From: a virus
Lineage: Duplodnaviria; Caudoviricetes
Length of the DNA stretch: 64,000 nt
Direction: 5' to 3' (one strand)
Virus record (IMG/VR): IMGVR_UViG_2974668611_000001
Span: 16,618-80,617 of that record
This document shows positions 25,620 to 52,971 of this stretch, one piece after another. A program made the translations under genes and the position numbers. Position 1 is the stretch's first letter. Each line of letters begins with the position of its first letter. The notes under the pieces are model-generated. The model did no database searches. It had not been told where the DNA came from and was given only the letters and a program-made list of their open reading frames with translations.

Positions 25620-25691
25620 TGTGTCTTGACAGAGTCGAACTGTCATTCCATGATTAGGAGTCATGTGTCTTATCCATTAGACTAAAGACAC
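25620..25691 (-). tRNA. tRNA-Arg(CCT)
   Basis: Acceptor GTGTCTT/AAGACAC; anticodon arm CATGA-CTCCTAA-TCATG; T loop TTCGACT; no encoded CCA. Confidence 0.88.
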
Positions 25692-25904: not shown

Positions 25905-25978
25905 TGCGTCCTGTCGGGTACGGTCCGACAACCTACGGATTAGAAATCCGTTGCTCTATCCAGTTGAGCTAAGGACGC
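25905..25978 (-). tRNA. tRNA-Arg(TCT) with non-canonical T loop
   Basis: Acceptor GCGTCCT/AGGACGC; ACGGA-TTTCTAA-TCCGT; T arm GTCGG-ACCGTAC-CCGAC. Confidence 0.8.
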
Positions 25979-38899: not shown

Positions 38900-39089
38900 A
38901 CTTCCTTATATTTATTTGTTCGATACCATTTGCGGAAAGTGATATATAAGTTCCAATCTCATAATATACCTTTGCGTTTCCTTTCATAGTTACTTCAATG
39001 TGTGTAACTCCTTTGTCTCCGATACGATACATATTACCAACAAATTTTATTGAATCTACATACATACTATTGGGATATTCAATTAACAT
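38892..39089 (-). CDS. Hypothetical protein
   Basis: Coupled ORF. Confidence 0.55.
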   Translation of the reverse strand: MLIEYPNSMYVDSIKFVGNMYRIGDKGVTHIEVTMKGNAKVYYEIGTYISLSANGIEQINIRKYA

Positions 39090-39508
39090 TATTTTCCCTC
39101 ACTAATATTAATATGAAGCACAGTAACCGATATATTGACTTCTTTATTGATAAAGAATCTCCTAAATCTCATTGTAGACTTTTTATTAACTAAACTAACT
39201 CCATCAATATATCTATATTTCTTATCGTGAATTAACTTGTTGTAAAAATCGCTGTCTCCTGACCTAATAAAATCAATATCACCATGAAACATATCGTTTG
39301 CTTTTTCTAAACAAGACCACAATAGCTTACTATTAGATACAATCTGTTCATAAATAGACACATCAACTGGTTTATCGTTTACATAACACTTAACCAATAA
39401 GTTGGTGTGGCCACTCTTTATTAGTTTCTTAATAATTTCTTTGTAGTCAGATTCAAATAATAAATCTTCCTCTTCTTTTAATTGTCCCGCTAATTTATTC
39501 ACATTCAT
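39089..39508 (-). CDS. Hypothetical protein
   Basis: RBS AGGAGG; own promoter. Confidence 0.65.
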   Translation of the reverse strand: MNVNKLAGQLKEEEDLLFESDYKEIIKKLIKSGHTNLLVKCYVNDKPVDVSIYEQIVSNSKLLWSCLEKANDMFHGDIDFIRSGDSDFYNKLIHDKKYRYIDGVSLVNKKSTMRFRRFFINKEVNISVTVLHINISEGK

Positions 39509-39534
39509 ATTATTATATCCTCCTTATTATATCA

Positions 39535-39563
39535 ATTATACCATAGTATATGTAATAAGTAAA
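39535..39563 (-). promoter_or_regulatory. SigmaA promoter for the gene starting at 39508
   Basis: TTTACT-17 nt (TG)-TATAAT. Confidence 0.65.
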
Positions 39564-39584
39564 CAATAATATAGTATTGTTCGA

Positions 39585-40268
39585 AATATCTCGGCTTAGA
39601 AACCGCCTGGGTTGAGACTATATAATATTGATAGCATGTCTGTCGTTAGTATGTAGTTCTTAACGTCTTGTGTTCTACGTGACGGCTATTAAATAAATAA
39701 CACCCTAATTTAACTAATTGTTATCACAATTACAAAATCAAACACACGTTCAGCCACCACAGTTTGTAATGCGATTTGTTTGAGCGATACAGTCTTTGCC
39801 TGTCAACACAAAGTATTATACACTTGTTCATTAGACAGTAGCAAAGACGAATTAGTTCGCAACGCTGATAGCCGTCGCTTCTAACAGGGTGAATTATCTT
39901 TGATTGGTATTTCAACCAATCACTAGCTTTTAACTCCCATGCTTATCCAGTCCCGGAAGCAGAACTTTCGTTCTATACTAGTTTGCCTAAAGGATTGTGT
40001 TAAGTCCCAGCGCCTATTAATAGTAAATATATGAACTCATATCATACAGTGACTACTTAGTACGACTGGGCGAACATTAGCCCAACCATTCCATCTTTCG
40101 CATATCCATTTCATAAGGACTTAGTTTTCATCTTCACAGATTGGAGGCTTTGGAATTTTTACCCCCTGACTCAATCAACAACACTTCAATTCACCTAAAG
40201 CAATGCCGACACATACCATTTTGTTACGCGGTAGGTTATCCGCTTGAATCTGTTCTATTAAAATGTCA
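39585..40268 (-). ncRNA. Candidate large structured ncRNA (~680 nt; ends approximate)
   Basis: No credible ORF; dedicated promoter; many nested 7-9 bp helices; GAAA/UGAAA loops on the minus strand. Confidence 0.7.
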
Positions 40269-40275
40269 TAAAAAC

Positions 40276-40304
40276 ATTATATAGTCATATAATTTGAAAG
40301 TCAA
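40276..40304 (-). promoter_or_regulatory. SigmaA promoter driving the non-coding unit
   Basis: TTGACT-17 nt-TATAAT. Confidence 0.75.
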
Positions 40305-40326
40305 GCAATGTTTTATATTTTTTATG

Positions 40327-40355
40327 TTGACTTATTAAAAAATATATAGTATACT
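40327..40355 (+). promoter_or_regulatory. Divergent sigmaA promoter
   Basis: TTGACT-17 nt-TATACT. Confidence 0.7.
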
Positions 40356-40388
40356 TTACTAAGTTAAAGAATTGGAGGATGTGCAATA

Positions 40389-40822
40389 GTGGATTATGAT
40401 GATTTTAAGGAAAAATTAAAGAATTAGGATATGAAGTGGTAGCGCATGGGCATAAAATTTATATTCTTAATAAAAGTAGGACTTTAATTACTATTAGTGG
40501 TCAATATGAACTAGAAATTGACGATAAAGAATATTTCAAGATGTTACCATTATGTAACGAGTTATTTCTATTATCATCTGAATTTTCTTCGGAACTAACA
40601 ATGTTTAATAAATATTATATCTTAATTCCGGGGATTTCAGATGGGTGGAATTATATTAACCTCAATATAGGTTCAAATGAAATTTTTATTTGTGACAAAG
40701 GAGAGCCACATGTTAGCAACGGATTTAAAGCGGCTTTCACGTGGAAAGAGGTCGAAGATATTCGAGGTAGACTAAACGTAATTAATTGGGGTAATGTAAA
40801 ATATGAACGTGTCAAAGATTAG
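40389..40822 (+). pseudogene. Frameshifted member of a phage paralog family
   Basis: GGAGG+GTG frame stops at 40425-40427; one extra A in the run at 40411-40415 joins it to ORF 40436..40822. Confidence 0.5.
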
Positions 40823-51956: not shown

Positions 51957-52122
51957 TGAGTAATAATAAGGTACCTTACTATTAAAGTGCCTATTTCAAC
52001 GAACGTGACTAATTTCTAAAAACAAGAATACTGTCACCATAGGCTTTGTGGCGTGTTAAAATCAGAATAAAATTACCATTTTATGGAAACAGGAAAAACA
52101 TAGAAATCTAGGAGGATTGATT

Positions 52123-52260
52123 ATGAAGATTTATGTGGTTGAAAATACTGGAGACGGTCTTAAAGCATTTAAACTAAAAGAAAAAGCATTAATCTACAAA
52201 GCGGCGCTTAATTCAATAGACATACCCGCAACTATGTTTGAAACAGAGCTAGTAATTTAG
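52123..52260 (+). CDS. Small hypothetical protein (absent from the ORF track)
   Basis: AGGAGG; MKIYVVE... Confidence 0.55.
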   Translation: MKIYVVENTGDGLKAFKLKEKALIYKAALNSIDIPATMFETELVI

Positions 52261-52278
52261 GAGAAGAGGAGTTTAAAT

Positions 52279-52971
52279 ATGTATTATAGTGAATTTAAAG
52301 AAGAAGTAGAAGCATTATCAAGCAAATATAGTGTTGGTGGAAACGACGAGTTTACTGTGGTTTTCTTACACTATTCACCTGTTATTTCTATTGAAAAACA
52401 CGTTCAATACAGAGTAAAAATCACGGACTCCGTAAAGCATTTTGAAAAGCTACCTTTTAGCCATAAGCTATATATGATTGCCGCAGAACTAGCACAAACT
52501 CCTGTAAAAGAGCGAACAGAAAGAGATATGAAATTGGCCTTTTCAGAACGCACAATTAATAGACAATTATCCAATATGGAACATATTGCACGACAAGCAC
52601 GAGTCAATAAGCATAATGCAGAAAGCCCAGCTAAGGATACACGTCCAGTTAACAAGAGAACTACAAAACTCTTCATTGAGACATATACTAATGGGGCAAC
52701 CGTTGATAACAAGAAGGAATATACTGGTATTAAGGACGCTAAGGGTAATCCTATCAATGTTGGTGACACCGTAGTAGAAGTATTTAACTTTAAGAATATT
52801 CCCAACATGCCTGACTTTGAAGAAAAAGGTGAACCGTTTGTTGTTAAGAAAGATTGCTATCTATATAGCCATTGGATTGCAAGAGGTGTTTCGGAGGGTT
52901 CTAAATTTGGTGTTGATGGGTTATGTTTTGGTAATGAGCTATTAAAGAAAGGTGACAACGATGAGGACTAA
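52279..52971 (+). CDS. Hypothetical protein: paralog-family N-terminal domain plus YopX-like C-terminal motif
   Basis: LPFSHKLYMIAAELAQTP; YTGIKDAKGNPINVGD. Confidence 0.65.
   Translation: MYYSEFKEEVEALSSKYSVGGNDEFTVVFLHYSPVISIEKHVQYRVKITDSVKHFEKLPFSHKLYMIAAELAQTPVKERTERDMKLAFSERTINRQLSNMEHIARQARVNKHNAESPAKDTRPVNKRTTKLFIETYTNGATVDNKKEYTGIKDAKGNPINVGDTVVEVFNFKNIPNMPDFEEKGEPFVVKKDCYLYSHWIARGVSEGSKFGVDGLCFGNELLKKGDNDED

Follow-up and report, generated by a model that had tools for sequence, protein, structure and literature searches.

A large structured RNA gene in Lactiplantibacillus and Levilactobacillus phages, probably of a class outside Rfam 15

In the 64,000-nt stretch of virus DNA analysed here (the window, bases 16618-80617 of a complete virus genome of 80,617 bp), a near-consensus promoter on the minus strand is followed by approximately 700 nt free of open reading frames (ORFs; 39573-40270), and we were interested what this stretch encodes. 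The original prediction had read it as a large structured non-coding RNA (ncRNA) with its own promoter, either a member of ROOL or GOLLD or a new class. To our knowledge, bacteria and phages have yielded only a handful of ncRNAs above 500 nt whose folds are both elaborate and conserved (among them OLE, GOLLD and ROOL), and the large 'ornate' RNAs of phages, to which a new class adds, are very few. Comparison with homologous loci supported the predicted RNA by strong covariation and by the conservation of its promoter: the large structured RNA gene is real and well supported. Beyond that, we consider it likely that 39573-40270 (minus strand) is the gene of a ncRNA class not represented in Rfam 15, the product of which would be stand-alone, early and trans-acting.

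A blastn search of 50,697 phage records led to matches in 22 of them, all from Lactobacillus or Lactiplantibacillus phages and almost always in a region without annotation. Altogether 12 homologues were obtained from metagenome contigs and from virulent Lactiplantibacillus and Levilactobacillus phages of two unrelated groups, the Tybeckvirinae and LP65 of the Herelleviridae, with pairwise identities of 59-96% across the 13 sequences (window and homologues). LP65 matched with 80% identity over 39576-40249 only, the Tybeckvirinae Lenus, P1/P2, Satyr/Maenad, Nyseid and SA-C12 matched the 5' ~490 nt, the match of the Harbinvirus phages Bacchae, Semele and Iacchus was confined to the last ~140 nt, and the full-length copy of Gut-P1 was added by an nhmmer profile search. 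A motif scan of metagenome contigs gave six loci, five of which were confirmed as true homologues by nhmmer. Motif scans of IMG/VR returned only known phages and chance matches; likewise, the first viral motif scan gave 18 loci, 13 of which were due to chance, as were both matches of one further viral pattern scan. Two loci were rejected as homologues, L028 as it sits within a 316-aa ORF and L030 as its similarity is limited to the motif.

The 5' part of the RNA was aligned for all 13 sequences (alignment A2) and folded with RNAalifold, which led to 96 pairs in 18 helices, 38 of these pairs showing at least one compensatory double change. Standard pairs were present in 96.8% of 1217 cells, compared to 86.6% in column shuffles (none of 500 reached 96.8%). 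When the 3' partners were slid by 1-3 columns as a control, 30-45% of the cells remained paired and 1-8 pairs had double changes, the covariation score falling from 0.378 to 0.04-0.07. G-U or U-G cells (159) far outnumbered A-C or C-A cells (11), indicating a structure read as RNA from the promoter-side strand and not a DNA feature. A search for covarying stacks revealed two additional long-range helices, both pseudoknots (PK1 and PK2), with 144 of 144 cells paired and double changes in nine of 12 pairs (0-3 in slid controls); the arms of PK2 occur as UUCC/GGAA, CUCC/GGAG, UCUC/GAGA and GUCU/AGAC. Complementarity in one sequence alone is not above chance, since the 706-nt RNA contains seven perfect 8-mer arm pairs and 300 shuffles gave 5.5 ± 2.9, with 104 of them reaching seven. 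Folding energy does not discriminate either, as the single-sequence z-score is no better on the RNA strand (-2.66) than on the opposite strand (-3.09).

The six long-range helices and two hairpins that the original prediction had drawn are all perfectly complementary in the window, and the alignment allowed them to be sorted. Both hairpins are supported by covariation (helices 14 and 16), and so are two of the long-range helices, 39792-99/39841-48 as helix 18 and 39888-95/40188-95 as PK1. Helix 40001-07/40117-23 was contradicted, a local hairpin (helix 7) covarying instead, helices 39729-36/39763-70 and 39712-19/39850-57 are not conserved, and inspection of the alignments showed that 39681-89/39868-76 pairs in some lineages and not in others. 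Roughly half of the drawn helix map held up in this comparison. The proposed unit of ~680 nt holds as a large RNA; its anatomy was redrawn as a core of ~510 nt, a linker and an optional 3' module (Table 1).

Table 1. Position of the RNA gene, its structural elements and the adjoining features (window coordinates).
Feature	Position	Strand	Remarks
RNA promoter, sigma-70-type, TTGACT-17-TATAAT	40276-40304	-	11/12 consensus positions
5' core, ~510 nt, 18 nested helices and 2 pseudoknots, ending in conserved UCGCAUUACAAAC	39762-40270	-	A2/RNAalifold
PK1 5' arm, loop of helix 3 (GGUGAAUU)	40188-40195	-	8 pairs, 5 with compensatory double change, 100% paired in 12 sequences
PK1 3' arm (AAUUCACC), ~300 nt downstream of 5' arm	39888-39895	-	
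PK2 5' arm, loop of helix 4 (UUCC)	40152-40155	-	4/4 pairs with double change
PK2 3' arm (GGAA)	40089-40092	-	
Helix 9 5' arm (GUUCGC), closing the central multi-branch domain with 39855-39860	40070-40075	-	
Helix 9 3' arm (GCGAAC)	39855-39860	-	
Helix 16 hairpin, UGAUUGGU-UGAAAU-ACCAAUCA	39901-39922	-	8 pairs, 6 with double change
Helix 18 (GUCUUUGCU/GGCAAAGAC) around a variable insert	39792-39848	-	9 pairs, 2 with double change, 100% paired
Linker, variable, poorly conserved and A-rich, ~35 nt (relatives up to ~180 nt)	39727-39761	-	alignments
Optional 3' module, ~150 nt	39573-39726	-	present in 10/13 homologues
Separate promoter of the next gene, TTTACT-17-TATAAT with TG	39535-39563	-	promoter scan
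First downstream protein gene, 139 aa, no PHROG family, ATG at 39508	39089-39508	-	

Rfam 15 (4227 families) was searched at gathering thresholds and at E<=10 with permissive filters. At gathering thresholds only two tRNAs were found in the window and none of the families at the RNA locus, and at E<=10 the window RNA, the Gut-P1 copy and the Bacchae region gave nothing meaningful, be it ROOL, GOLLD or an intron family; the permissive matches of the window RNA (snoRNA, caiA, STnc260), of Gut-P1 (miRNA, telomerase RNA and sRNA families) and of Bacchae (snoRNA and miRNA families) were dismissed as junk. A true ROOL was detected elsewhere in the same phage genome (G000:C1:6358-6930, plus strand, locus L038; 139 bits, E 2.9e-32) and another one in LP65 (52015-52589, minus strand, locus L042; 128 bits). 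G000 and LP65 each carry two different large structured RNAs, ROOL and the new RNA. A highly diverged ROOL or GOLLD overlooked by the Rfam models would share with the new RNA what the available part of PMC12286853 describes for both, namely Lactobacillales phages as habitat, the size, more than one pseudoknot and, ahead of a 3' part, an internal linker that varies. This explanation is nevertheless extremely improbable: over the whole genome at E<=10, the ROOL model (RF03087, gathering threshold 99.1 bits) finds the true ROOL and does not nominate the new locus, the GOLLD model (RF02032, gathering threshold 150 bits) gave 0 matches with 13 candidates scored over all 80.6 kb, and an nhmmer profile of the new RNA found nothing in both ROOL loci at E<=10.

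Eleven phages that have the new RNA or at least its 3' module were tested with the ROOL model, which detected ROOL only in G000 and LP65 and not in Lenus, P1, Nyseid, Bacchae, Satyr, SA-C12, Gut-P1, LpeD and Lpa804, indicating that ROOL and the new RNA are independent. With no match in Rfam, ROOL at another locus and nothing found by the GOLLD model, the new RNA apparently represents a separate, undescribed class outside ROOL and GOLLD. Hence, of the two possibilities that had been left side by side, membership in these families fails and the new class stands. The literature yielded no report of the RNA, except that the supplementary tables of PMC10690425, which were not covered, might list fragments of the locus; in the available part of this viral csRNA screen, motifs average 67 nt and Lactobacillus is not named. 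Similarly, the Harbinvirus genome paper (PMC6669764) uses neither 'non-coding', 'noncoding' nor 'intergenic', and its available passages do not deal with the RNA locus.

The claim that the stretch holds no credible ORF was borne out, since the longest start-to-stop ORF comprises 61 aa, stop-to-stop frames reach at most 77 codons among the 13 homologues (46 in LP65) and none is common to all lineages. Both promoters named beforehand, the one of the RNA and the one of the next gene, were found at the positions given in Table 1, and the former is kept at the same place in the homologues: TTGAC[A/T]-17/18-TAnnnT occurs at the same upstream distance in 11 of the 12 homologues with 5' flank, ten of these 11 with a TG-extended -10 region, which the window's own RNA promoter does not have, and the twelfth homologue, Gut-P1, shows TTGATA-17-TATAAT as judged by eye. 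From the promoter position, the RNA is predicted to start near 40269. Its G+C content is 36-40%, compared to 25-30% in the flanks. In every annotated genome the RNA falls between annotated genes, at a divergent junction, and the RNA gene without its flanks is common to unrelated phage groups of the same hosts at ~80% identity. The genes on its 3' side vary with the phage (HNH, a fast-evolving family of ~135-139 aa, orf82 in LP65, small ORFs in P1 and Satyr), pnuC and nadR lying further downstream in some of them. A conserved downstream protein partner was rejected, as the genes differ and the 139-aa protein shares 13-29% identity with the downstream proteins of the relatives. From the promoter, the strand-specific fold, the absence of coding, the separate promoter of the next gene, the varying downstream genes and the transfer of the RNA alone, a stand-alone, early and trans-acting RNA is the most plausible product of the locus.

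Several observations weigh against this reading. The family is narrow, with 13 sequences of ~8 lineages in phages of one host group only, and a search of 185,579 species-representative genomes with one motif gave two matches, both by chance. No consensus fold was obtained for the 3' module, in which only a small GGC...GCC hairpin covaries. Behind the RNA, neither the window nor LP65 has an intrinsic terminator, which makes read-through into the downstream operon likely, and none is conserved in the homologues (a terminator-like hairpin in Nyseid is not). In addition, contigs of two RNA-seq libraries from different studies (X14 and X16) cover relatives of the core at a depth of ~4-5, and one of them runs from the core into the start of the downstream gene; contigs show neither transcription nor ends nor strand, and with their low depth and possible DNA carry-over these are a weak hint of expression. 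A further run, X15, is probably DNA, and stretches left uncovered in the runs carry no information. DNA runs that hold the RNA were located in 13 studies. The missing terminator and the bridging contig, together with the co-orientation of RNA and following genes in every genome, would suit a structured 5' leader, cis-regulatory or processed, of the leftward early/replication operon, in which the RNA promoter would mainly serve the genes behind it, with read-through, stability or processing under the control of the fold. We consider such a leader unlikely, because the genes behind the RNA differ between phages without a constant family, a separate promoter-like site not more than 130 nt past the RNA precedes the next genes in ten of 12 homologues, the RNA alone is the unit common to unrelated phages, and 510 nt with two pseudoknots go far beyond known leaders.

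The divergent junction raises a further possibility. In the window it joins two replication/recombination operons, with genes for a DnaB-like helicase, a primase and a RecJ-like exonuclease on the plus-strand side and for a resolvase, a Sak4-like protein and an exonuclease on the minus-strand side, and the cumulative GC-skew has its minimum at ~40100-40300. Transcripts act at replication origins in the case of ColE1 RNA II and of the T4 R-loop origins, and an origin-associated transcript that primes or opens an origin in this manner might be placed here as well. This is very unlikely, since no iterons or tandem repeats were found, the region is richer in G+C than its flanks and does not form an AT-rich unwinding element, and a primer would not need dense invariant loops and pseudoknots. 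Moreover, the LP65 copy is not located in a replication module but between a tRNA array ending ~1.6 kb upstream and NAD-salvage genes on the other side. ARAGORN detected neither tRNA nor tmRNA over 39300-40500; the two tRNA genes of the window (25620-25691 and 25905-25978, both on the minus strand, with 66.9 and 61.1 bits) are 14 kb away from the RNA.

As no terminator is conserved, the 3' end of the RNA is not fixed by sequence, and three markers delimit it: the similarity to LP65 stops at 39576, Lenus-type RNAs end after the core, and in a natural variant 39573-39725/6 is swapped for 17-19 other letters in two sequencing runs. The latter was observed in a close relative, in the DNA run X1 and the RNA-library run X14, where 39573-39726 is replaced by these unrelated letters. 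Apart from this deletion variant, the 3' module is absent from Lenus, L032, L034 and LpeD, and in Harbinvirus phages it is attached to a different upstream candidate RNA of ~800 nt. One HNH family (50-84% identity), which, going by the record annotations, we take to resemble the I-HmuI-like free-standing HNH family, is encoded directly after the RNA or its 3' module in P1, Nyseid, SA-C12, Gut-P1 and Lpa804, with a second copy upstream of the RNA in Gut-P1. No HNH gene accompanies the RNA in the window, LP65, Lenus and Satyr, and the endonuclease is therefore regarded as an invader of the locus and not as part of the RNA function. Lpa804 (L037:~1300-2137, compared to L007 and L005) resembles Bacchae as far as the middle of the 3' module and Nyseid from there through the HNH promoter and gene, a recombination junction from which we infer homing with co-conversion of the flanks. 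Co-conversion of flanking sequence is established for free-standing homing endonucleases and may explain that a siphovirus and a myovirus have the same short piece, which suggests that the spread of the 3' module was at least partly an event at the DNA level. One could also regard the RNA itself as part or relic of an HNH-linked mobile element, for instance a degenerate group I-like intron, as the same HNH family follows it in five phages and the junction falls within the 3' module. However, four RNAs without an HNH gene are at odds with this explanation, no group I or group II intron model matched at E<=10, and the RNA has a promoter instead of an exon directly upstream and splits neither gene nor ORF, on which grounds a group I intron was rejected. 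As the pattern suits a free-standing endonuclease gene invading beside a conserved target, we hold a mobile element for highly improbable.

The region in front of the 3' module in Harbinvirus phages was found to be ~800 nt long, free of ORFs, equipped with its own promoter and located upstream of pnuC-nadR (L007:1165-1965 in Bacchae), with counterparts in L036, L037, L035:~1380-2140 (LpeD) and L047; the LpeD region is 61% identical to that of Harbinvirus. We refer to it as type B and to the window's core as type A. At the position upstream of pnuC-nadR, LP65 has type A and its relatives among the Herelleviridae (Harbinvirus, LpeD) have type B. For type B, 254 pairs were predicted, 94.6% of them paired, with 45 double-change pairs compared to 4-11 in slid controls, in a fold derived from the same five sequences on which it is scored, four of them near-identical. 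No Rfam match was obtained for the region, which we regard as a candidate for a further large structured RNA not described so far. Homology of types A and B was rejected, as nhmmer with --max at E<=100 found nothing and the 12 common 8-mers (10 ± 4 after shuffling) are not collinear. A short (CCGA)n run at L007:~1694-1715, within Harbinvirus type B and missing in LpeD, marks a variable place, which the predicted fold puts in a loop. Behind type B, Bacchae and LpeD show strong conservation of the phage pnuC leader (L007:2240-2394; end of L035:1290-2262), with a stretch of GTGCGTTTCTTTCCGCCCACGGCACAG as part of it; the leader matched no Rfam family at E<=10 and may be a regulatory RNA for the NAD-salvage genes of these phages.

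Returning to the stand-alone RNA, the favoured explanation would work as follows. Host RNA polymerase would transcribe the gene immediately after infection, and the RNA would fold into a compact tertiary particle by means of its dense invariant loops and of PK1 and PK2. The target of this particle in trans might be a macromolecule of the host or the phage, a role also presumed for ROOL and GOLLD, rather than one gene under cis-regulation. The 3' module is an optional add-on and also the site at which the HNH cassette recombines between phage lineages. As described in the available part of PMC12286853, ROOL is an RNA-only homo-octameric nanocage, and both ROOL and GOLLD form RNA-only cages. RNA-only assembly is a possible mode of action for the new RNA too. 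More speculatively, the large phage RNAs could include with it a third, independent family, which like ROOL and GOLLD forms a higher-order particle of RNA only, is deployed at the very start of infection and is modular in build. It is conceivable, if doubtful, that type A, type B and ROOL are interchangeable large RNA cores in L. plantarum phages. With similar reserve, types A and B at equivalent loci and with the same optional 3' module might reflect a homing-driven shuffling of cassettes between phage families.

For an experimental approach the material is favourable, as virulent isolates with the RNA exist for a host that is easy to grow (LP65, Lenus, P1, Satyr, Nyseid, SA-C12 and Gut-P1), natural variants with and without the 3' module are available for comparison, a true ROOL in the same genome allows side-by-side tests, and sister phages offer a second candidate large RNA at the equivalent locus. 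This set of phages, ROOL and variants makes the question what large phage RNAs are for directly testable. It also illustrates that phage annotation pipelines leave gaps of ~0.7-1.4 kb which hold RNA genes.

The new RNA belongs to a known kind, the large ornate phage RNAs, being longer than 400 nt, non-coding, phage-encoded and rich in covarying helices including pseudoknots. With the group I introns of SPO1-like and Lactobacillus phages it shares a structured RNA of several hundred nucleotides and an HNH gene that is often nearby, but it has no exons, no intron-model match and a promoter of its own. The endonuclease genes at the locus behave like other free-standing HNH genes, having their own promoter, inserting beside conserved sequence and co-converting the flanks, except that the conserved neighbour is here an RNA gene and not a protein gene or intron. 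GOLLD is likewise a large RNA of phages and prophages with a two-part build, in which, according to the available part of PMC12286853, a conserved 3' region common to the members comes after a more variable 5' region. In the case of the new RNA, two unrelated 5' cores share a 3' module; however, this RNA is smaller and not matched by the GOLLD model, its 5' core is the well-conserved part, and the module, of only ~150 nt, is optional and gave no consensus fold. From ROOL it differs in having no similarity in sequence or covariance model and, in the window, in not adjoining tRNAs, the nearest of which are 14 kb off. ROOL is often situated beside tRNA islands, and in LP65 a tRNA array ends ~1.6 kb upstream of the new RNA. 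Otherwise both are RNAs of Lactobacillales phages with ~0.5-0.6 kb, many helices and pseudoknots and a poorly conserved internal linker, both need no protein gene nearby, and in G000 and LP65 they are found together.

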